DNA of 64,000 bases from positions 23,088-87,087 of the forward strand of contig CASESG010000006.1 of assembly GCA_949290645.1 (NCBI GenBank). Reading direction: 5' to 3'. The translations under genes were made by a program, and so were the position numbers. The notes under the pieces are model-generated. The model saw only the letters and a list, made by a program, of their open reading frames with translations, ran no database searches and was not told the origin of the DNA. Numbering within the stretch: the first letter of the stretch is position 1; every line of letters begins with the position of its first letter. Shown piece after piece: positions 35,635 through 64,000 of this stretch. The DNA comes from an uncultured Bacillota bacterium (GTDB lineage Bacteria; Bacillota_I; Bacilli_A; RFN20; CAG-288).

Positions 35635-38231
35635 GAAAGCATTTCCCCGATCTTCTTGCGGACTTCTTCCAGGTCGACGCCGTTCTTTCCGCCGCCGAAA
35701 GCGACATCGTCCCGGCCGCCTCCCGAGCCACCGACAAGACGGCTGAGCTCTTTCATCAAAAGGCCAGCCTTCAGATTCAGGTCCTTGCCCCTTCCGGCGA
35801 CCAAATCGGCCTTTCCGGAATTCCCTTCGTTGACCAGGAAGAGGACAAGGCCCGGATGTTGATCGATGAGCTTGTGGGCCAGGGAGTCGAGCTGCTCGTG
35901 GGTCAGGCCGTGCGTCTTCTCGACCAGGACCTCATGCCCCGAGAGCGGAAGGATGTTCTTCTTCATGTCGGAAAGCATGCTGTTGGTGATCTTCTCGCGG
36001 AGACTGTTGATGAGCTTCTTCTTCTCCTCGTCGTCGGCAAGAAGAGCCTCAAGCTTGCTTCTAAGGCCCTTGACCGACATCAATTTCAAAAGGCTGGCCA
36101 GGTCGAAGAGTTGTCTCTCCCGATCCTTGAGATAGTTGTAGGCCTTTTCGCCCGTATAGGCCGTGATGCGGCGGATTCCCGAGGCAATCGCCCCTTCGCT
36201 GACGATGACAAAGAGACCGATCTCCGAAGTCGAGCGGACATGCGTTCCTCCGCAGAACTCCTTGGAGTCGCCCATCGAGACGACACGAACCTTGTCGCCG
36301 TACTTCTCATTGAAGAGATGCATGGCATTGGTCTTGAGGGCCTCATCCTTGTCGAGGACGGAAGTCGAGACCGAAAGTCCGGCGAAGATCTCGTCGTTGA
36401 CTCTCTTCTCGACCTGATCGAGGACGTCCTTCTCGACCTTCGATTCATAGGCGAAGTCGAAGCGAAGGCTCTCGTCGTCATAATAGGCGCCTTCTTGATG
36501 GATGTCCTTGCTGACGAGCTCCTGGAGGGCCTTCTGCAAGAGATGGGTCGCCGAATGGTTGTTCTCGATTTTTCTTCTTCGCTCCCAATCGACCTTTTGG
36601 AGCAGGACGTCTCCACCCTTGACCGTCCCAAAAAGGACCTTTACGTGGAGCAGGTGGGCGCCGTTAGGGCACTTGCCGACCGAGAGGACTTCCGCCTCGA
36701 AGTCCTTTCCGAGAAGCTTTCCCGTATCGCTGACCTGTCCGCCGCTCTCGGCATAGAAGTCCGTCTTTTCCAGGACGATGTCTCCTTCGTCATCGAGGCT
36801 TTCGACCCTCTTCCCGTCCTGGAAGAGACCGATGACCGAAGACTCGAAATCCTTCTCCTCATAGGTGAAGGTGCTTTCCTTGTGGAAGTCGAGAAGATCC
36901 TTGCTCTGCGTGCCGAAGGACTCTCTCGTCCCACGGCTTTGCCTTGCCAGTTCCTTGGAGTCGGAAAGGAGCTGATCATACCCCTTTTCGTCGACCTCAA
37001 GGCCGGCGTCATGGGCGATTTCCTTCGTCAGCTCGAAGGGGAAGCCATAGGTGTCCATGAGCTTGAAGGCATCCTTGGCGGAGAGGACCTTGCCCGACTT
37101 CTCGATCATGTCGGAGAGGATCTTCTCGCCGGTATGAAGAGTCGCAGAGAACTTCTTCTCCTCGCTCTCGATCATCTTGCAGGTCTTCTCCTCGTGCTCG
37201 AGAAGGTAAGGATAGAAATGGGACATGTTCTTGTCGACCAGAGGGACAAGATTGGCCAGAGTCCCGGTCTCCAGACCGATCTTCTGGGCATAGCGAGAGG
37301 CTCTTCGCAAGAGTCTCTTGAGGACATAGCCCCGGCCGTCGTTGGAGAAGATGGCACCGTCGGCCAAGGCGAAGGTGATGGAACGGATGTGGTCGGCGAT
37401 GACGCGATAGGCCAACTTGTTCTCCGAATAGGGAACCTTGGCCTTCTTCTCCAGAGCCTCGATGTAGGGAAGGAAGAGGTCCGTCTCGAAGTTCGTCTCC
37501 GCACCCTGAAGGATGCAGGCGAAACGCTCCAGTCCTGCGCCGGTATCGATGTTCTTCTGCGGAAGAAGCTTGTAGTCCTTCCTCGGCGTTCCCGGAACGG
37601 CGTTGAACTGGGAGAAGACGATGTTCCAGAGCTCGATGTAGCGGTCGTTGTCCAGATCGTCGGAGAGAAGCTTCAGGCCGAGATGCTCGGGATCGTACTT
37701 CTCGCCCCGATCGAAATTGATTTCCGTGTCCGGACCACAGGGGCCTTCCCCGATCTCCCAGAAGTTGCCCTTGCAAGGAACCAGATGGTCCTTGTCCATT
37801 CCGGCCTTAATCCAGGTCTCGTAGGTGTCCAGGTCGTCCGGATAGTAGGTGACATAGAGTTTCTCCTTGGGAAGGCCGAAGTACTTCTCCGAGGTCAGAA
37901 GCTCGAAAGCCCAGGGGATGACATCGTGCCGGAAGTAGTCTCCGATCGAGAAGTTCCCCATCATCTCGAAGAAGGTGTGGTGACGGGCCGTGTGCCCGAC
38001 GTTCTCGATGTCGTTGGTGCGGATGCACTTCTGGGCATTGGTGATGCGTCTGTGCTTCGGGGTCAGGGTTCCGTCGAAGTACTTCTTCAAAGCCGCGACG
38101 CCGGCATTGATCCAGAGCAGGGTTGGGTCATTTTGCGGAATCAGGGAGGCAGAGGGTTCGACGTAATGGCCGTGCTCCTTGAAGAATTCCAGCCAGGTGT
38201 CACGAATCTCGTCCGATGTCATTTTGCGCAT
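35631..38231 (-). CDS. alaS: Alanine--tRNA ligase
   Basis: HHTFFEMMGNFS, IDTGAGLER, HSATHLL, EFCGGTHV, GGSGGG. Confidence 0.98.
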   Translation of the reverse strand: MRKMTSDEIRDTWLEFFKEHGHYVEPSASLIPQNDPTLLWINAGVAALKKYFDGTLTPKHRRITNAQKCIRTNDIENVGHTARHHTFFEMMGNFSIGDYFRHDVIPWAFELLTSEKYFGLPKEKLYVTYYPDDLDTYETWIKAGMDKDHLVPCKGNFWEIGEGPCGPDTEINFDRGEKYDPEHLGLKLLSDDLDNDRYIELWNIVFSQFNAVPGTPRKDYKLLPQKNIDTGAGLERFACILQGAETNFETDLFLPYIEALEKKAKVPYSENKLAYRVIADHIRSITFALADGAIFSNDGRGYVLKRLLRRASRYAQKIGLETGTLANLVPLVDKNMSHFYPYLLEHEEKTCKMIESEEKKFSATLHTGEKILSDMIEKSGKVLSAKDAFKLMDTYGFPFELTKEIAHDAGLEVDEKGYDQLLSDSKELARQSRGTRESFGTQSKDLLDFHKESTFTYEEKDFESSVIGLFQDGKRVESLDDEGDIVLEKTDFYAESGGQVSDTGKLLGKDFEAEVLSVGKCPNGAHLLHVKVLFGTVKGGDVLLQKVDWERRRKIENNHSATHLLQKALQELVSKDIHQEGAYYDDESLRFDFAYESKVEKDVLDQVEKRVNDEIFAGLSVSTSVLDKDEALKTNAMHLFNEKYGDKVRVVSMGDSKEFCGGTHVRSTSEIGLFVIVSEGAIASGIRRITAYTGEKAYNYLKDRERQLFDLASLLKLMSVKGLRSKLEALLADDEEKKKLINSLREKITNSMLSDMKKNILPLSGHEVLVEKTHGLTHEQLDSLAHKLIDQHPGLVLFLVNEGNSGKADLVAGRGKDLNLKAGLLMKELSRLVGGSGGGRDDVAFGGGKNGVDLEEVRKKIGEMLS

Positions 38232-55544: not shown

Positions 55545-56223
55545 CTTTCTCTCCTTCGAAATATCCATTCTTCAGAAAGGCATTCTGAGTCGCATAATCC
55601 GGGTCATGAAGGTTCAGGATGCGGTAGAAGCGCTTGTCATGTCCCTTGACGACAAGATGCGTGACTTCGTGATAGAGCAGGGAATCGAGAATCTCCTTGC
55701 GGAAGGCAAAGGTCCGAAGGTCGAACTTGAGCTTCTTCTTCGTCGGAAAACAGCATCCGAAGTAGGAGCCGAAGAAGCCGACCCCGAGACAATATTGCGA
55801 CAGGTCCAGATCGTATTCCTTCCCGATTTCGACAAGACGCTCTCTCAGATAGGAAAGGAACATCGAGCGATAGCGAGTCAGAGGCGTCTTCGCCGTTTTG
55901 GAATAGTAGAAGTACTCCGGATCGTCCTTCTTCCGCACATCCTGGGTCAGCTTCTTCCTCTGTCCCAGAAGGTAGATATACTGCCCCTCCTGGTAGAAAG
56001 GTCGGTTGACCATCACGTGCTTCGGGGAGGAGCAGACCTTGCGGACAAGATCCATCATCGCTTTCTCCTCCGTGAAGCGGTGGGCCAGAAGAGAGAGCTC
56101 CCCATATTGGACACGAGCGGAAAGGCGATAGCTCGGGCGTGGATTGAGATAGACCTTCACGTCGAAGCGCTCTCCCCTCCCGTCCGTGCAGGAGAGAACC
56201 TTCAACACTTTGCGCTTGGACAT
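55525..56223 (-). CDS. YgjP/DUF45-like zinc metallohydrolase
   Basis: YHEVTH...HDKRFY motif. Confidence 0.8.
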   Translation of the reverse strand: MSKRKVLKVLSCTDGRGERFDVKVYLNPRPSYRLSARVQYGELSLLAHRFTEEKAMMDLVRKVCSSPKHVMVNRPFYQEGQYIYLLGQRKKLTQDVRKKDDPEYFYYSKTAKTPLTRYRSMFLSYLRERLVEIGKEYDLDLSQYCLGVGFFGSYFGCCFPTKKKLKFDLRTFAFRKEILDSLLYHEVTHLVVKGHDKRFYRILNLHDPDYATQNAFLKNGYFEGEKDEENYR

Positions 56224-56286
56224 ACGAATCTATTTTAATTTCTCTTGCTTTCCAAAGAAAGGGTTGATATACTCTATGAGCTGTTT

Positions 56287-56370
<84 letters not shown>

Positions 56371-56382
56371 TCTTATAACTAA

Positions 56383-56413
56383 CATTTTGATACAAAGTAA
56401 GGGTCTCAAAATG
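56383..56413. repeat. Imperfect inverted repeat, att-like
   Basis: CATTTTGATAC-aaagtaagg-GTCTCAAAATG (10 of 11 positions match), 12 bp after the tRNA end. Confidence 0.6.
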
Positions 56414-56424
56414 AGTCGATATTT

Positions 56425-56447
56425 GCTCGAGAAATCGGGCATTTTTT
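56425..56447 (+). terminator. Terminator downstream of tRNA-Leu
   Basis: GCTCGA-GAAA-TCGGGC followed by ATTTTTT. Confidence 0.7.
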
Positions 56448-56453
56448 CATTTT

Positions 56454-56590
56454 AAGCGTTTTGCTAGTAGAGAAAAATTGATTTGAATCTACGGATTTTA
56501 GAATTTTGGTTCTACTAGCTAAACGAAACCCTTACTAGAGAAACGTTAGGCTACTAGAAAAACGAAACCCTACTAGATAAATGACACCCC
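56454..56590. repeat. Array of 19-20 bp TACTAG-anchored repeats (4 direct, 1 inverted)
   Basis: 56513 TACTAGCTAAACGAAACCCT; 56533 TACTAGAGAAACGTTAGGC; 56552 TACTAGAAAAACGAAACCC; 56571 TACTAGATAAATGACACCC; minus strand from 56469 TACTAGCAAAACGCTT. Confidence 0.85.
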
Positions 56591-56659
56591 CTAAAAATTA
56601 AAGATATGACTGAAATAAATGCCTTTTGAAGTTCTAAAGACTTTGAGAGGTGTTTATAA

Positions 56660-57751
56660 ATGATCAAAGTTATAGAACTTTTTGCGGGTATAGGAAGCCA
56701 AAGAGAAGCATTAAAAAGAGCCAATATCGAACATGAAATAGTGGCAATCAGTGAAAATGATAAATTCGCTATTAAGGCTTATGAATTACTTCACGGGCCA
56801 ACTAACAATCTTGATGATATAAGAGAAATAGAAAGATTACCAAAAGCTGATTTATGGACCTATTCATTTCCATGCACTGATATTTCTCTTGCAGGAAAAA
56901 TGAAAGGTTTTGATAAGGGCAGTAATACCCATTCATCGCTTTTATGGGAAGTCCAAAGATTGCTTGAGGTAGCAAAAGAAAATGATGAACTTCCTAAATA
57001 TTTATTGATGGAGAATGTGAAGAACATAGTTTCAAAGAAATTCATGCCATTGTTTCAAGTGTGGTTAGACTATCTTGATTCATTAGGCTACAAAAACTTT
57101 TATAAGGTTCTTAACGCCAAAGACTATGGCATACCTCAAAATCGAGAACGATGTTTCATGATTTCAATTAGAGATAAGAACGCACACTATGAGTTTCCAA
57201 AACCTATCCCTTTAACTAAAAAGCTTGCAGATCTATTAGAAAACGATGTTGATGAGACATATTTTCTTAGTGAAAAGCTCATCACTTGCTTTACTGATAT
57301 GAGCGATAGGCATGGACTCATTCGTGGATTGAGATTTAGACCGAAATATATGAATGAAACTGACTATGCTTTTGCTATCACTACTCACGCTGGTTATAGA
57401 CCGACTGACAATTACATCATCATTCCTCAAGCAACCAAGGAAGGTTATGAACTAGCGAGTGTCGGAGATGGTGTTTATACAAACCGATGTCAATATAAAA
57501 GAGGAGTGGTTCAAAGATCGGTGATTCCTACCATCAAAACATCAGTTAGTGATATAGGAGTAGTCGCTAATGATAAAGATGAACTTATATCTATTCGAAG
57601 ACTAACGCCCAGAGAGTGCTGGAGACTTATGGGCTGGTATGATGATGAAATAGATAAAGTTATTAATGAGTTTAGTAACACTCAACTTTATAAGATGGCA
57701 GGTAATTCTATAGTAGTGAATTCACTTAAATTAATTGTGAAAAGCCTTTAA
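56660..57751 (+). CDS. DNA (cytosine-5)-methyltransferase 1
   Basis: ELFAGIG, YSFPCTD, MENV, PQNRER, RRLTPRECWRLMG, AGNSIVV. Confidence 0.95.
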   Translation: MIKVIELFAGIGSQREALKRANIEHEIVAISENDKFAIKAYELLHGPTNNLDDIREIERLPKADLWTYSFPCTDISLAGKMKGFDKGSNTHSSLLWEVQRLLEVAKENDELPKYLLMENVKNIVSKKFMPLFQVWLDYLDSLGYKNFYKVLNAKDYGIPQNRERCFMISIRDKNAHYEFPKPIPLTKKLADLLENDVDETYFLSEKLITCFTDMSDRHGLIRGLRFRPKYMNETDYAFAITTHAGYRPTDNYIIIPQATKEGYELASVGDGVYTNRCQYKRGVVQRSVIPTIKTSVSDIGVVANDKDELISIRRLTPRECWRLMGWYDDEIDKVINEFSNTQLYKMAGNSIVVNSLKLIVKSL

Positions 57752-57784
57752 TATGCATATTTTTGAATAATTTTCAAATTTTCC

Positions 57785-57814
57785 ATGTTATAAAATGCTA
57801 TAAAATGTTATAAT
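57785..57814 (+). promoter_or_regulatory. Three tandem 10-bp repeats ending in an extended -10 box
   Basis: ATGTTATAAA ATGCTATAAA ATGTTATAAT, 17 bp before the HTH-MTase ATG. Confidence 0.65.
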
Positions 57815-57831
57815 GTCATTTGGGTGATTAT

Positions 57832-59097
57832 ATGATATTAAAAGATAAAATAACTTATATAAGAGCACATCTAAATTTAACGCAAGAAGAATTGGCAAAG
57901 GAAATGGGTGTTTCTTTTGCGACAATTAATCGTTGGGAAACTGGAAAAAATAATCCAACCAAAAAAACGCAGCAACAATTAGATACTTTTTGCTCCCAGC
58001 ACAATATTATTTTGCCAGACGAAAAAGTTCTCAGAGTATTTGAGGGATTTGCTGGATATGGTGGGGGAAGTTTTGCTCTAAAACGTGTTCAAAATCTACA
58101 TCCAAATTTTAAGTATGATGTTGTTGGCTATTCTGAAATAGATAAATATGCTTGTGAACTTTATGATGCAAATCATAGGGATGCAAGCGGGCGACTTATT
58201 ACTAACTTTGGCGATATAACTATAATTGATCCAACATCTCCGTCATTCCCTGATTTTGATATTTTTATGGGTGGTTTCCCTTGCCAACCATTTTCAACTG
58301 CCGGAATGCAAAAAGGAGAAGATGATCCTTATGGTCGTGGAACTCTATTTCAACACATTATAAGAATATGCGCCGTTAAAAAACCACGCTATATTTTAAT
58401 GGAAAATGTAAAAGGCCTTCTTTCTAAAAAATTTGATGCCACTAGAGCATTAATGATTAAACTCTTAAGAGAAATTGGATATGTCAAGGACAAAAACAAT
58501 CCTAATGAATCTCCAATTGCTTATGCGGTATTAAATAGTAAGGATTATGGAATTCCTCAAAATAGAGAACGTGTATGGATGTTCGCTCGCCTCGGTGGCT
58601 TGCCTGATAATTTTAGTGTTGAACCACCTCAAAGAAAAAATGACCTAAAAATGGCAGATTTTTTAGATCCAGAAGGATATGTTCCTAAAGAAATGTATCT
58701 TTCTAAAAAGCAAATTGATCATTTAAAGGTAAAACATAATATTCCAAGTTTTAAGGTGGATACCCCACTTTGCCTAGATATTTATAATAAAAAAATCAAA
58801 TATGATGGTTATTCTATTACTATCACTTTGCCTGAACACAATAGTTTAAGAGTAATTGAAGCCCATAAAAATCGAGAAGTCGTAAGAAAAATGTCTGTAA
58901 CTGAGCAATTTAGACTAATGGGACTAGAAGGTCTCAAAGGTGTTGGTAGAAAAGTTGATATTGATTTTAATGGACAATCTTATACTCAGTTGTCTAGACG
59001 TGCCGGCAATGGCTGGGATGTAAATTTAGTAACCATTCTTTTAGAATATATATTGAATCAGCTTCAGAATTTAGATTTTGATTTGTTTGACTTTTAG
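57832..59097 (+). CDS. XRE-HTH fused DNA (cytosine-5)-methyltransferase 2
   Basis: LTQEELAKEMGVSFATINRWETGK, then EGFAGYGG, GGFPCQ, ENV, PQNRER, AGNG. Confidence 0.93.
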   Translation: MILKDKITYIRAHLNLTQEELAKEMGVSFATINRWETGKNNPTKKTQQQLDTFCSQHNIILPDEKVLRVFEGFAGYGGGSFALKRVQNLHPNFKYDVVGYSEIDKYACELYDANHRDASGRLITNFGDITIIDPTSPSFPDFDIFMGGFPCQPFSTAGMQKGEDDPYGRGTLFQHIIRICAVKKPRYILMENVKGLLSKKFDATRALMIKLLREIGYVKDKNNPNESPIAYAVLNSKDYGIPQNRERVWMFARLGGLPDNFSVEPPQRKNDLKMADFLDPEGYVPKEMYLSKKQIDHLKVKHNIPSFKVDTPLCLDIYNKKIKYDGYSITITLPEHNSLRVIEAHKNREVVRKMSVTEQFRLMGLEGLKGVGRKVDIDFNGQSYTQLSRRAGNGWDVNLVTILLEYILNQLQNLDFDLFDF

Positions 59098-59109
59098 GAG
59101 GTAGAAGCG

Positions 59110-61191
59110 ATGAGACTTGATATAGGATCACTTATGTTCAATATGACCACTGATATTGGTGGTACGCCATCTTGGGGAACAGATTTGGGACAAGGGGAAG
59201 GCTATAAGTTTAATTTCGAGAATTTCGAATCTTTCCTCACGGCCATGCTTTATTGCAAAACTAATGAAAAAGTTTGGTGTCCACTAGGTAAGGGAGGAGG
59301 CAGGCAAGATGATTATGATTACGTCTTGGCAAGCCAATTTCAAAAGATTTATGCCAATGACATTGAAGTTCCTGATGCTAAATTTGTTCTGCTTATAGTC
59401 AAACAGCTTTCAAGTGCAAGCAACAATCATATTGGCAGACGCAGTTTAAAGTATTCACCAAGAATAGAATTAAATGGTTTTAAATATAATGAAGATTGTT
59501 ATAAGAAAATTCAAAATACTTTAGGTCTTAATGATAACTCTGCCTGGTTTGTATATGAAATTAATACACAAAATCAAGATGAGTTACATTTTAGAATTAT
59601 TATCGCAGATAAGAATAAATCCCTACATTTCCATAGCACTGATGAAAGAAAAAGTTTCGTCAATTCGTTGATACTTAAAGAAGATGAGACTGAAGTTGTA
59701 AAATTTAAAGGCTTACTATCTTGGTTTGTTCGTCAATTAAGAATCAATAATGATTTGGAAAATGGCGTTAAAACATCGGGACATGGTTATAAGGGTGAAA
59801 GCATAAGAAAATTATATGAGGATTTTAGAACTTATAATGGATTTACATTAGATTGTAATATTCAATCTGGCTATAATAAATGTTCTTCTAAGGCAAATTA
59901 TATTCATGTAACAAACACTGGTATCAATATTAGGCCACTTTTTGAATCTAAAGATGTTAATTATTTATATTTGGATTTATATAACACATCTATCAACGGC
60001 TATTCTGACCTATTGACAAAAAAATACTTTATTAAAGATTTGGATTTATTTTCTAGTGAAAAGCCTAATAGTAAGTTAAGAGAATTATTTAGAGATTATA
60101 AACTTTTAATTTTTGGGCTCTCTAATTCTTTAAACAATGACCTTCCAGTTGATGGGAACTTGGATAAGGGCTCTTTTTCTCGTTGTGGAATAAATGTAAT
60201 CCTTTATGGCGTTCCGGGTTCAGGAAAAAGCTATACAATCGATCATGATTATGTTCATGCCGGTGAAGCTGAGTCTATAAGGCTCGTTTTCCATCCTGAT
60301 TATACATACTCTGATTTTGTAGGCCAGATTCGTCCAATAATGAAAGATGGTGAAGCGAGATATGATTTTGTTCCTGGGCCATTTACGAATATATTAAAAA
60401 TGGCATACCAAAATCCAAGTAAAAAATACTATTTGGTAATTGAAGAGATTAATCGTGGTAACGCTGCTTCGATATTTGGAGACATTTTCCAACTTTTGGA
60501 CCGTGAAACAGACCATAGCAAAGACAATTATCAATGGAGTAAATACTGCATCTATAACGAAAATATTGCTAAAGTTATTTTTGACGACCCAAAACATGTA
60601 ATCGAAATACCTTCCAATTTAGGACTGCTTGCTACCATGAATACATCTGACCAAAATGTGTTTACTTTAGATACAGCTTTTCAAAGAAGATGGGACTTAA
60701 GACAAATAACAAATACTTTTGATAAGACTGATTTGGAAAGCAAAGAACTAGCCGAACAAAATATATTAGACACATCCATATCTTGGGAAAAATTTATTAA
60801 AGAGATTAATAAAGCTATTCTTGCCAATAATGTTGGACTTACATCTGCCGAAGATAAAAGACTTGGCACGCATTTCTTGCTAAAGGACGATCTTATACTA
60901 GAGAATGATCGAGAGACTGGCATAACAGAGGAAGAACGTATTTCTCGAAAGTTGCACAATCAGAAATTTGCTGAAAAAGTCATTAAATATCTTTGGGATG
61001 ATGCATTTAAATTTAATAGGCCAAAAGCGTTTAGATCCAATTATAAAGATTTAGAAAGTCTTATTAATGCTTTTATGCAGGCTCAAAAGAATGCACGTTT
61101 TAATATCTTTATCGATGATATCACCAACGCTTTAAATGATGTTGCTGGCGAAAATAACGATAATACTGGCAATGATGGGGATGAAGATTAA
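59110..61191 (+). CDS. McrB-like AAA+ restriction subunit (R1.LlaJI-type)
   Basis: GVPGSGKS, FHPDYTYSDFVG, IEEINRGN, MNTSDQNV, DTAFQRRW, KYLWDDAFK. Confidence 0.92.
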   Translation: MRLDIGSLMFNMTTDIGGTPSWGTDLGQGEGYKFNFENFESFLTAMLYCKTNEKVWCPLGKGGGRQDDYDYVLASQFQKIYANDIEVPDAKFVLLIVKQLSSASNNHIGRRSLKYSPRIELNGFKYNEDCYKKIQNTLGLNDNSAWFVYEINTQNQDELHFRIIIADKNKSLHFHSTDERKSFVNSLILKEDETEVVKFKGLLSWFVRQLRINNDLENGVKTSGHGYKGESIRKLYEDFRTYNGFTLDCNIQSGYNKCSSKANYIHVTNTGINIRPLFESKDVNYLYLDLYNTSINGYSDLLTKKYFIKDLDLFSSEKPNSKLRELFRDYKLLIFGLSNSLNNDLPVDGNLDKGSFSRCGINVILYGVPGSGKSYTIDHDYVHAGEAESIRLVFHPDYTYSDFVGQIRPIMKDGEARYDFVPGPFTNILKMAYQNPSKKYYLVIEEINRGNAASIFGDIFQLLDRETDHSKDNYQWSKYCIYNENIAKVIFDDPKHVIEIPSNLGLLATMNTSDQNVFTLDTAFQRRWDLRQITNTFDKTDLESKELAEQNILDTSISWEKFIKEINKAILANNVGLTSAEDKRLGTHFLLKDDLILENDRETGITEEERISRKLHNQKFAEKVIKYLWDDAFKFNRPKAFRSNYKDLESLINAFMQAQKNARFNIFIDDITNALNDVAGENNDNTGNDGDED

Positions 61192-62468
61192 TGGACGATT
61201 CTGATGATATTTTCCAACATTGTCACGTTGACTTAAATGACGATGGTGATCGATTTGTAGGAATAAAAGGAGACCATAATAATTTAATGGTCTATTTTCC
61301 TTGCGGATATGAACTTCCAAATGATGAAAATGAAGTTAGACAAGAAATAAGGGATCTTTTTAATGTTTTAGCTGAATTTACAACTGAAGATGACAGAGTT
61401 TTAGAAATAGATAGAAATGCAGCAACTATTTCCGTTAGTTTTCCAATACAAGCGTATAGGACCGTAATTGAATACTATCTAGAAAGGCAGAAATATTATT
61501 CTGATAATGAAATTGTTTATAAAAGGTCTGATAGCGGTCCTATTAATTTCGCTATGACTTTTAAAAAGAGTAATCCAATAATTCTACCTAATTCCTCTAC
61601 ATTCATGTTCGATGATTATTTTAGAATGCAAAAGTCACCGCAAAAAAACCAAATGATAACAAGGATTCATAAGTTTTGTGTTTATGAAAGCTTTAAAAAA
61701 CTCGGGATTATCTATACGCCATTAATTCCTGAAAAGCCTGATTTGATGATAGATCCAAAAGACCAAGATATGATCAATTCTTGCATAAATTTACTTTACG
61801 AAAAACTTTATGAAACTCGTAACGATGTAGATAATAGATTATTTGAAGCAATGATAAATATGCTTCGTTATTACGGAAGCAATAATGATGAAAAACAATA
61901 TTATTTTGGGACCGATAAGTTCGAACATGTGTGGGAACGTTTAATCGATAAAGTTTTCGGTGTAAGTAAAGAAGAAAAACAAAAATATTTTCCTCGTGCT
62001 TATTGGCGTGTGTTTCTTGGAAAAGATAAAAATAAAAAAAGGCATCCTTTGGAACCTGATAGCATCATGATTTTGAAAGATGCTGATGGGAACAATGAGT
62101 ATTATGTTTTGGATGCAAAGTATTATAGATTCGGAATTACAGGCAGTATTTCCAACCTACCTAATTCATCTGACATCAACAAACAGATTACTTATGGAGA
62201 GTTTGTAAAGAAAAAAGCTGATGGACATAGTCCGTTCAACGCATTTATCATGCCATATAATAAAAACAATAATCTTTTTGGAGTGGACTCTGATATTGTT
62301 AACTCATCTGTTGCTTCAGGTGATTGGATTGATCACGAAAGAGAGCCGCACGAAAAAATACAGGGAATCCTAATAGATACAAAAACACTGCTTTGCCGAT
62401 ATAGAACTATTTATAATGATAGGTTGAAAAAGAAACTAGCTGAGGAAATCAAAAAACAATATGATTGA
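61191..62468 (+). CDS. LlaJI-family restriction endonuclease (McrC-like, PD-(D/E)xK)
   Basis: FEHVWERLID, EPDSIM, LDAKYY, DINKQITYGE; stop/start overlap with the AAA gene. Confidence 0.88.
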   Translation: MDDSDDIFQHCHVDLNDDGDRFVGIKGDHNNLMVYFPCGYELPNDENEVRQEIRDLFNVLAEFTTEDDRVLEIDRNAATISVSFPIQAYRTVIEYYLERQKYYSDNEIVYKRSDSGPINFAMTFKKSNPIILPNSSTFMFDDYFRMQKSPQKNQMITRIHKFCVYESFKKLGIIYTPLIPEKPDLMIDPKDQDMINSCINLLYEKLYETRNDVDNRLFEAMINMLRYYGSNNDEKQYYFGTDKFEHVWERLIDKVFGVSKEEKQKYFPRAYWRVFLGKDKNKKRHPLEPDSIMILKDADGNNEYYVLDAKYYRFGITGSISNLPNSSDINKQITYGEFVKKKADGHSPFNAFIMPYNKNNNLFGVDSDIVNSSVASGDWIDHEREPHEKIQGILIDTKTLLCRYRTIYNDRLKKKLAEEIKKQYD

Positions 62469-62474
62469 GGTGCA

Positions 62475-63593
62475 TCATGTACCTCTTTTTTTATGGGTCA
62501 TTCTATATTTTCTTTGAGAAGCACAATTTCTACATTTATCAGAGCAATAGATTTTCTTGGTAGAAGTTGACTTATCGAGTTTGAAGGGTTTATGGCAATA
62601 CTCACAAATTCTGTATATCTCAACTTCTGGATTCATATAGAAAAGTGAAAAATATAAAGCAGTTAATAAATCTTCTACATTCCATGAGGGTGACATTTTT
62701 TCTTTGTTATATGAAGGCTTAATGTTTTTGACATAGTAATCTATTTCTTCTTTAAATGTGTCTTTGGCAACTTGGAAAAGTGCAGGTTTTAAAAAACTAT
62801 TGTCGCTTTTATCTCTCTTGCAAAAATAATAGTTAACAAAAACATCTATTGCCTTTTTTTCGATATCATCAAATTTGAAATTGCCAAGCACATAGAGCTC
62901 ATACAAACTTTTGAAATATGGGTTTGCTCTCATGGCTTTAAATTCAACATCATTTGAGTGAAGAAAATCATAATAGAATTCAGAATCTAAAGTAACATTT
63001 GTGTTTCTTGCTGAATCAAAGATAGTTATTTTTCCAGTTTCATCTAGAGATTTCCTTTTTTGAGCGGAAAGAAAATTAGAAGTATTTAGTATGATGGTAC
63101 TCAGTTTATGCGGAGACTGATTAGTGCCTCGATGGAACATTAAGAACTGAATAATTGAAATAGTATCTTCAACATTTAGCCTATTTCCATGTGATAATTT
63201 TGATGAGAGAGCGAGCAATTGACTAAGAAGTCTGTTTTGATTATCCAATTCTTTTAAAGTAATAATTAAAGGCTTGTTGTTTTTAATCGAATTTAAATAA
63301 CCATTTTTTTCAAAAAAAGTTTTATATGCGTTTATTCGTTTGATGTCTGATTCTTGATTAATAATAGATACAAAAGAACCTAATAGGTTTTCTTCATCAA
63401 CGCTTCCGTTTTGGCGCAGTCTCACAAGGCCTTCTTTCGCTAAGAACCCTAATGATATTGTTTTGGTATCGTCAGGGATAAGTTTAATTGCAATTCCATC
63501 TTCGTAATTGATAATAAAGACGAAAGAAGGTTGATTTTTCACGATAAATAATGATTCTAGATAAAAATTTTCATTTTTTACTTTGCGTTTCAT
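62475..63593 (-). CDS. Hypothetical protein with C-terminal CGNR-type zinc finger
   Basis: ICEYCHKPF...YCSDKCRN...RKYR; GGAGG before ATG 63593. Confidence 0.75.
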   Translation of the reverse strand: MKRKVKNENFYLESLFIVKNQPSFVFIINYEDGIAIKLIPDDTKTISLGFLAKEGLVRLRQNGSVDEENLLGSFVSIINQESDIKRINAYKTFFEKNGYLNSIKNNKPLIITLKELDNQNRLLSQLLALSSKLSHGNRLNVEDTISIIQFLMFHRGTNQSPHKLSTIILNTSNFLSAQKRKSLDETGKITIFDSARNTNVTLDSEFYYDFLHSNDVEFKAMRANPYFKSLYELYVLGNFKFDDIEKKAIDVFVNYYFCKRDKSDNSFLKPALFQVAKDTFKEEIDYYVKNIKPSYNKEKMSPSWNVEDLLTALYFSLFYMNPEVEIYRICEYCHKPFKLDKSTSTKKIYCSDKCRNCASQRKYRMTHKKRGT

Positions 63594-64000
63594 GCTTGTA
63601 TTATCCTCCGATATTACTTGAGATTTTGCTTTTGCACTTACTCTTACATAAAGAATAATTGAAAGAATAATTAACAAAACTATTTTAACATAGAAGTAAC
63701 CTAAAATCATTAGAAACCCAATTACTTTATTAAATATATAATCACTATTTTGGCTATGTATTATTACTCATAGCCTTTTTATATACTTCTCATGTAAGTC
63801 AGACGTGGCTTAACAATTCTGCCTCGATACTAGTTAACCATTCGGGTGGAGAAAGGTATGTAGACGAGAAACTTAATGGTGATGTTGCTCCGATATTAAG
63901 GCAACAACATTGTCTACAAAATTCAATAATTCTTGTACTAGCAAGAACACACCATTTCATGACTCCGATTTTATCGGTGGCCCCGATGGCAAAAGGGAAG

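Follow-up and report, generated by a model that had tools for sequence, protein, structure and literature searches.

The window, i.e., the whole stretch of 64,000 nucleotides analysed here, belongs to contig C6 of the genome of an uncultured Bacillota bacterium (G000). A tRNA-Leu gene is followed there by a TACTAG repeat array, restriction-modification genes, and a long low-GC region. The features are as follows.

56287..56370, + strand: tRNA-Leu(GAG), integration target, intact (ARAGORN; Rfam tRNA)
56369..56370, + strand: crossover dinucleotide CA, the last two bases of CCA, and left element junction (from the empty site, and from right ends, after which CA follows)
56371..56394, + strand: element half of the left att site, with TGATAC at 56388-56393, 17 bp past CA, mirroring the right-end GTATCA
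about 56394..56413, - strand: sixth, partial outward-facing unit with a G-box-like AAGGGTCTC at 56399-56407; makes an inverted repeat with the TGATAC arm
56424..56447, + strand: terminator-like hairpin and T run, element-borne; in a comparison of 14 ends, two of its 7 pairs show compensatory changes
56450..56471, - strand: inverted, outward-facing unit; among 54 homologous left ends, 33 have its CTAGT at +90 to +94
56513..56532, + strand: direct unit 1
56533..56551, + strand: direct unit 2, without the ACCC tail
56552..56570, + strand: direct unit 3
56571..56590, + strand: direct unit 4
56660..62468, + strand: LlaJI-like restriction-modification cargo (Pfam, NCBIfam)
62475..63710, - strand: 411-aa ORF with a C-terminal zinc finger, PHROG 30403
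56371..64000, no strand: left part of a low-GC prophage (GC, Pfam, empty site)

The four direct units start at 56513, 56533, 56552, and 56571, i.e., at spacings of 20, 19, and 19. All five units, four direct and one inverted, fit the consensus TACTAGnnAAAyG, and AAACGAAACCC is common to direct units 1 and 3. The phasing of the array exceeds chance: in 0 of 3000 dinucleotide-preserving shuffles of 56371-56660 were four identical 6-mers chained at a period of 17-23. These coordinates and shuffles confirmed the array as it was described in an earlier note on this DNA. The TACTAG hexamer itself matched eight times across the window against a mean of 4.74, and 8 of 100 shuffles reached eight, so its enrichment is not clear. 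In a scan of the G000 genome with a matrix of the unit, the best seven matches were all located at element ends; because the matrix was itself built from such ends, the result means no more than that strong sites are few elsewhere in the host.

The earlier note had also marked an att-like site. The crossover is the CA at 56369-56370 and not the inverted repeat at 56383-56413. The TGATAC and GTATCA motifs are putative recombinase contacts, and the element-borne hairpin presumably replaces the displaced terminator of the tRNA. A near-identical hairpin (GCCCGAGAAATCGGGC-like), matching that of the element, was seen 10-13 bases past the CCA of about ten host tRNA genes; these hairpins may have a common origin with it or be traces of earlier insertions.

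The LlaJI-like cargo is composed of two C5 methylases, one with an N-terminal HTH, a McrB-like AAA_5 protein, and a RE_LlaJI protein. No Pfam family was found for the 411-aa ORF next to it. The GC content falls from about 0.53 to 0.31-0.34 past tRNA-Leu and is mostly under 0.40 over the rest of contig C6. Past the window, DUF2800, ssDNA-binding protein, family A polymerase (PolA), and D5-type primase were recognized by Pfam up to the contig end. A viral contig showed 87% identity over 3.5 kb to the replication module of the island and continues with helicase, terminase small subunit, and ParB-like methylase genes; its gene order is that of a complete prophage in genome G384.

The right end was found at G000:C2:1-98, where two full units and a partial third face inward. 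It closes with GTATCA, 17 bases, and CA at C2:97-98. The empty site was found in run X6, in which an 802-nt contig is made of 63 letters of the tRNA-Leu end and 739 letters from C2:97. The identical join was present in run X5 with 25 letters on the tRNA side, which are too few as a bridge alone. Both runs belong to one study, other than the possible source study of the genome. By this join, the element spans window position 56369 across the C6-C2 assembly gap to C2:98, and the island is a prophage inserted at the CA of the tRNA-Leu CCA. The tRNA is whole and the two junctions share CAT only; apart from CA(T), nothing of the tRNA 3' end was detected at the C2 right end. A synteny search with the gene after the C2 end gave no C6-C2 link. 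Joined, the two ends would give TGTATCAA-N16-CA-N16-TTGATACA, 50 bp in all and symmetric about the dinucleotide. Such symmetry about a dinucleotide is the layout of a large-serine-recombinase att site.

Element ends in related genomes and phages

The proposal of a tRNA-targeting element end module was borne out. The array recurs at the C2 right end, and the left end was matched in 17 of 41 genomes. The right-end pattern was found in 44 stretches of 42 loci, mostly titled uncultured Bacilli, Mollicutes, or Acholeplasmatales. The 56 distinct left ends comprise 20 placed directly behind tRNAs of 10 isoacceptors, 23 at tandem junctions, and 13 others. After removal of duplicates, CA precedes 50 of these 56, and CA comes next after 57 of 58 right ends, followed by a variable base (T 41, A 10, G 6, C 1).

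The positions of the units are highly regular in this subfamily with TACTAG ends. Among the 55 right ends whose full context could be read, 51 have CTAGTA, almost always 42 or 62 bases ahead of CA, and the right-end G-box (GGGTGTCGTTT-like) is mostly 35, 55, and 75 bases before CA. The spacing of right-end units was 19 or 20 in 49 of 54 cases. On the other side, the first direct unit was located at +141 to +143 in 17 of the 18 left ends with at least three units. Whole units are gained or lost between ends, and the length of the spacer, about 39 bp, is constant.

Many ends are incomplete. Direct units are absent in 23 of 54 left ends, and at least three units were found in only 18 of 54. A full recombinase is missing from 20 complete elements, which measure 133 bp-9.6 kb; at least three left units are present in 10 of them and at least one right unit in 16, and two retain a fragment of recombinase B (described below) with 79-88% identity. 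The ends and cassettes without arrays may be relics, or insertion may not depend on the array. In 15 ends, the first ORFs past the array fall into 11 families, and a 16th end has no ORF. The array is therefore not an operator of the restriction cassette. On the same count, the HTH-methylase and the zinc-finger ORF of the window, named earlier as candidate binders, were set aside.

Several single loci were also recorded. A second left end in G000, at G000:C5:73492-73600 (L002), lies behind tRNA-Lys(CTT); it has kept the inverted unit and lost the direct array, is followed by a low-GC stretch of about 2 kb, and no right end was found for it. At L136:1523-1792, a 268-bp element consists of a left and a right end only, with units of 31-bp period, and resembles a MITE-like minimal substrate. 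In type I restriction cassettes flanked by such ends, L029:10800-11603 and L058:74-877 encode a 267-aa ORF that is tyrosine-recombinase-like by eye and is probably a specificity-subunit shuffler.

The layout extends far beyond this subfamily. Among 400 genomes from the order, 338 have a tRNA end with TGATAC 8-30 bases on (949 matches; reversed control, 2), and by hand count the spacing was 17 in 117 of 150 among the matches listed. With the spacing fixed at 17, matches occurred in 74 genomes of a wider sample of 300, all from the same class, with 0 control matches. A right end is visible in 16 of 36 loci with a B relative, and 10 of those are diverged, i.e., 44-53% identical to B. Repeats by GTATCA were seen by eye in nine of the 10 diverged right ends (GGGTGTCG-, GGGTATGCA-, GGGTGCAA- or AGTGTCA-like), mostly with a period of about 20 bp and the last copy usually 2-4 bp from GTATCA. 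The left arrays of relatives, at about +140 to +210, also have other units (ACACGG, ACGGAAC, AACGATT). Because diverged relatives use other units, TACTAG is specific to the subfamily, and the G-box and AACG core are more general. A chain of at least three exact 6-mers was present in only 4 of 30 general left ends and five of the 30 were too short; most of the others look like relics.

Two sister elements with ACACGG / GCACACCC units were noted in G000 itself, at G000:C8:37391-38110 and G000:C2:201609-202940, behind tRNA-Arg(TCG) and tRNA-Glu(CTC). A TACTAG-like second end is nested in the C8 element at about 38000-38110. In many relatives, the tRNA is located at the recombinase end on the opposite strand (L315, L344, L354, L414, L416, L428, L435, and others). 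At these loci, some targets resemble tmRNA 3' ends by eye, and TGATAC is often in the loop of a terminator hairpin.

Among phages, the GenBank record PV036447.1 (Ca. Heliusvirales) shows this layout in full, and each of its two ends has an array. Three further phage records showed no usable ends, and the TGATAC motif was near one end only in PP091924.1. The exact left-end and right-end patterns had 0 matches in viral contigs. The general tRNA-CCA…TGATAC pattern gave mostly background in the same contigs, with the spacing of 17 in 14 of 80 among the matches listed.

Recombinase module and prophage relatives

The earlier note had proposed to record which recombinase genes occur together with the array. 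Paired large serine recombinases and a small protein, H, were found beside the right end of autonomous relatives. Of the 42 loci, four have complete large serine recombinase genes immediately inward of the right end and two have partial genes there; L078 and others with TACTAG-subfamily ends have two of them in tandem. The module consists of H (133 aa), a small ORF (58 aa), A (437 aa), and B (524 aa). Resolvase, Recombinase, and Zn-ribbon domains were recognized in both A and B, and by alignment a long coiled coil is present in B and apparently missing in A. The predicted model of H has an HTH and two zinc fingers (pLDDT 82, pTM 0.35), and a fold search with this model gave no PDB match at E ≤ 0.001.

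H, A, and B co-occur in 16 of 16 longer stretches. H was found in 89 of 94 non-redundant A+B loci and was missing in five. L427 has a full right array and no detectable H, and its A gene is also broken. Paralogues of H are encoded elsewhere in phage genomes. The C-terminal zinc finger of the 411-aa ORF in the window (62475-63710, - strand) weakly matches that of H (E 9e-5). B relatives were found in 108 of 400 genomes of the order at E ≤ 1e-50.

The autonomous relatives are tailed prophages. In G384, the module is preceded by genes for portal, protease, capsid, tail, and holin proteins, and tail genes were found in a contig bearing TACTAG-subfamily ends. In G000, an 85% complete genome, neither a close B relative nor H was detected; its own H/A/B module is probably in the C6-C2 assembly gap, and the island could be composite. 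The serine recombinase on G000:C7 and the six tyrosine recombinases of the genome are not beside these ends. At the start of that contig (G000:C7:1-2560), a small ORF precedes the gene for an unrelated large serine recombinase of 570 aa. The same nitroreductase-like peptide was read at the G000:C8 end and the G000:C1 start, so these contigs overlap and are probably adjacent.

Role of the repeat units

The array is the end array of a prophage family with paired serine recombinases that inserts at tRNA CCA ends. With a probability of about 0.65, it is a conserved sub-terminal part of the prophage left end whose units are likely accessory, i.e., arm-type, sites for the phage integration module. 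Judged from sequence, a role of the units as recombination arms is itself rather probable, and of the earlier suggestions for the array, protein-binding arm sites for an element-encoded factor would be the best reading. On either end, the units keep a fixed distance from the crossover, and the TGATAC motifs are mirror images, 17 bp on either side of CA.

In the proposed mechanism, A and B would cut and exchange strands at CA. TGATAC would be read by the zinc ribbon of B, which has a near-invariant KVWHS motif, and the tRNA half-site would be read through a T-loop motif placed 22 bp before CA, against 23 bp for GTATCA. Reading of the T-loop would explain the use of many tRNAs. Several copies of a single protein would bind to the head-to-tail units of 19-20 bp, about two helical turns, and lie on the same face of the DNA. 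Arms occupied in this way would shape the synapse or set its direction. Cassettes with two ends would be moved in trans. A new element would enter at the tRNA CA and push the older one downstream, which would explain the mixed junctions, and each element would supply its own terminator.

H is put first as the most likely binder of the units, at somewhat less than even odds overall. The similarity of unit motifs was compared with that of protein segments by Mantel tests, in which it followed the HTH of H (r 0.36, p 0.009, n 16), the C-terminus of B (r 0.31, p 0.006, n 20), and the zinc ribbon of B (r 0.22, p 0.045), where three close relatives are excluded, kin are not independent, and none of the p-values survives correction for 11 segments. 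No segment of A was tracked by the motif (r -0.22 to 0.09). A fuller picture may be offered tentatively, in which an HTH-zinc-finger protein polymerises on phased repeats round the att core and thereby directs a recombinase made of two enzymes, which would recognise the T-loop universal to tRNAs and cut the CA of CCA. To our knowledge, the known large serine integrases work on short att sites, with no arms or DNA-binding accessory factors. Conserved arm arrays round a two-enzyme module would be an exception among them.

Recombinase subunits as binders remain a close rival to H. The att-arm role would then be the same, and the units would bind extra subunits of A or B, like resolvase accessory sites. 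The unit is in register with the outer 20 bp of both half-sites at an offset of +7 each (p ~0.06 and ~0.05), and many units have TGATAC or TGACAC outright within them. The apparent lack in A of the long coiled coil of B, and the correlation of the motif with the C-terminus and zinc ribbon of B, are also consistent with subunit binding. However, the segments of A do not track the motif, the half-site likeness is borderline, and an integrase half-site is about 25 bp, longer than the period of 19-20 bp. On balance, this assignment is somewhat unlikely.

The units might instead have a job after excision, i.e., as a replication origin, packaging, or partition site, or act as operators, and be near att because the ends join there. 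The prophages do encode a polymerase, a primase-helicase, and a ParB-like methylase, and repeats of 19-20 bp are iteron-like, as is typical of origins. Cassettes would need such a site for packaging or copying, and the array is lost from many inserted ends. However, the distance of the units from the crossover is fixed at both ends, and the last right G-box is 2-4 bp from GTATCA across diverged relatives. Against operators, the downstream genes vary as described above, and no sigma-70-like promoter was found in 56200-56700. A post-excision or operator role is thus rather improbable.

Transposase-binding ends of a tRNA-homing Tn7-like or IS21-like element are very unlikely. TnsB sites are asymmetric sub-terminal repeats, and the repeats here, which face inward at both ends, resemble them. 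However, insertion occurs at the CCA itself with only CA(T) shared, i.e., two to three bases, and there is no 5-bp target duplication at a fixed downstream distance; the TnsB-like end sites suggested earlier were therefore rejected. The Tn7-like CyCAST inserts 30-33 nt downstream of its tRNA, according to the available part of PMC10293859. Also, the left end does not start with TG, serine recombinases lie beside the autonomous right ends, and no rve match was found in G000 (85% complete genome). A search for TniQ gave no match in G000, and none in control genomes either.

A small structured repeat RNA, also raised in the earlier note, is equally improbable and was dropped. The fold of 56454-56590 beats 199 of 200 shuffles (z -3.5), but it results from the inverted unit, which pairs with any one of the direct units. 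Among 14 ends, no change on both sides of this helix was detected by RNAalifold, whereas the terminator hairpin has two such pairs. In Rfam, only tRNA reached the gathering score. The array is also placed behind the terminator, and the right-end units are in one orientation only.

Comparison with known integration systems

By sequence, the recombinases are a large serine pair of the known Φ1207.3 type. A is 43% identical to Orf56 of Φ1207.3 over 313 aa, and B is 47% identical to Orf57 over 502 aa. Φ1207.3 of Streptococcus pyogenes is likewise a tailed prophage with two tandem large serine recombinases at its right end, and the ends of its record share the TGTATCAA / TTGATACA motifs, 16 bp from the core. 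A 2-bp duplication at the junctions is common to both (here CA; CAT at tRNA-Leu). In Φ1207.3, however, the core is GA and comEC is the single fixed target, whereas the elements here use the CA of tRNA CCA ends. Φ1207.3 also has no annotated H gene between the amidase and Orf55 and no 19-20-bp array in the 89 bp past its last gene. The available part of PMC4260502 describes Orf56/Orf57 as a resolvase pair and GA as duplicated in comEC, and the words 'tRNA', 'attP', and 'inverted repeat' do not occur in that part.

SCC elements (CcrA/CcrB) likewise have paired large serine recombinases, a dinucleotide crossover, tandem composites, and recombinase-less att elements, as far as the accessible part of PMC13739063 describes them. 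According to the same part, SCC inserts at the 3' end of rlmH with a GA core and TATCATAA 6 bp from it (PMC13739063). The elements here differ in using tRNA CCA as target and CA as core, in having TGATAC at a distance of 17 bp, and in their prophage helpers. The NCBIfam Ccr cut-offs are 700-900 bits, and the scores of A and B are 82-166.

In the Dehalococcoides ssrA islands (DsiB + DsiA), serine-recombinase islands are also stacked in tandem behind a tRNA-like gene, and about half have no integration module (PMC3146451, in part). Their sole target is ssrA, with a T-loop crossover and a 20-bp direct repeat (PMC3146451, same part), whereas the elements here have no such repeat. The second recombinase there is 200 aa, and the part of PMC3146451 at hand describes no phage structural genes or end arrays.

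Among gut phages, PV036447.1 (Ca. Heliusvirales) combines an A/B pair with the end layout seen here. In the available part of PMC11283538, which deals with Ca. Heliusvirales, the gene in question is named DNA invertase, and the words 'tRNA', 'integrase', and 'recombinase' are absent. Tyrosine-integrase tRNA islands differ in the duplicated tRNA 3' segment at the far end, which the elements here lack. The attP arms of lambda type, composed of tyrosine integrase arm, Xis, and IHF sites, are likewise phased, asymmetric repeated sites flanking the crossover. In contrast to lambda, serine chemistry is predicted here, only two to three bases are shared, and there is no second copy of the tRNA 3' end.

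In the literature searched, no account was found of CCA-directed insertion by such a module or of the arrays; subscription papers and supplements may differ. The word 'tRNA' is absent from the accessible part of PMC10083194. No account of CCA-directed insertion or arrays was given in the parts available of PMC12884075, bioRxiv 10.64898/2026.05.11.724261, and bioRxiv 10.64898/2026.01.26.701711. The earlier note had proposed an undescribed element family; going by the literature searched, this may hold for the CCA targeting and the arrays, but not for the recombinase pair, which is of a known type.

Because only CA is duplicated, island finders that seek a repeated tRNA end are expected to miss this family. 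The family may be a main route for these gut bacteria to gain restriction systems, transporters, and other cargo. For paired modules, these ends are compact substrates on which the roles of the second recombinase and the small upstream genes can be examined. For Firmicutes lacking genetics, an integrase able to enter many tRNA genes and leave them intact would be a tool. If the multi-arm reading is true, any tRNA or tmRNA gene would be a landing site, recombinase-less cassettes would stack like integron cassettes, and the unit sequence would decide which helper phage mobilises which cassette.

Branches with other cores were also observed. A TC core was seen at L334, L365, L377, L425, and L433, and a GA core at L390, L436, L441, and L457. 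These branches seem to use non-tRNA targets, and several of them have G-box-like arrays, some of which are reversed.
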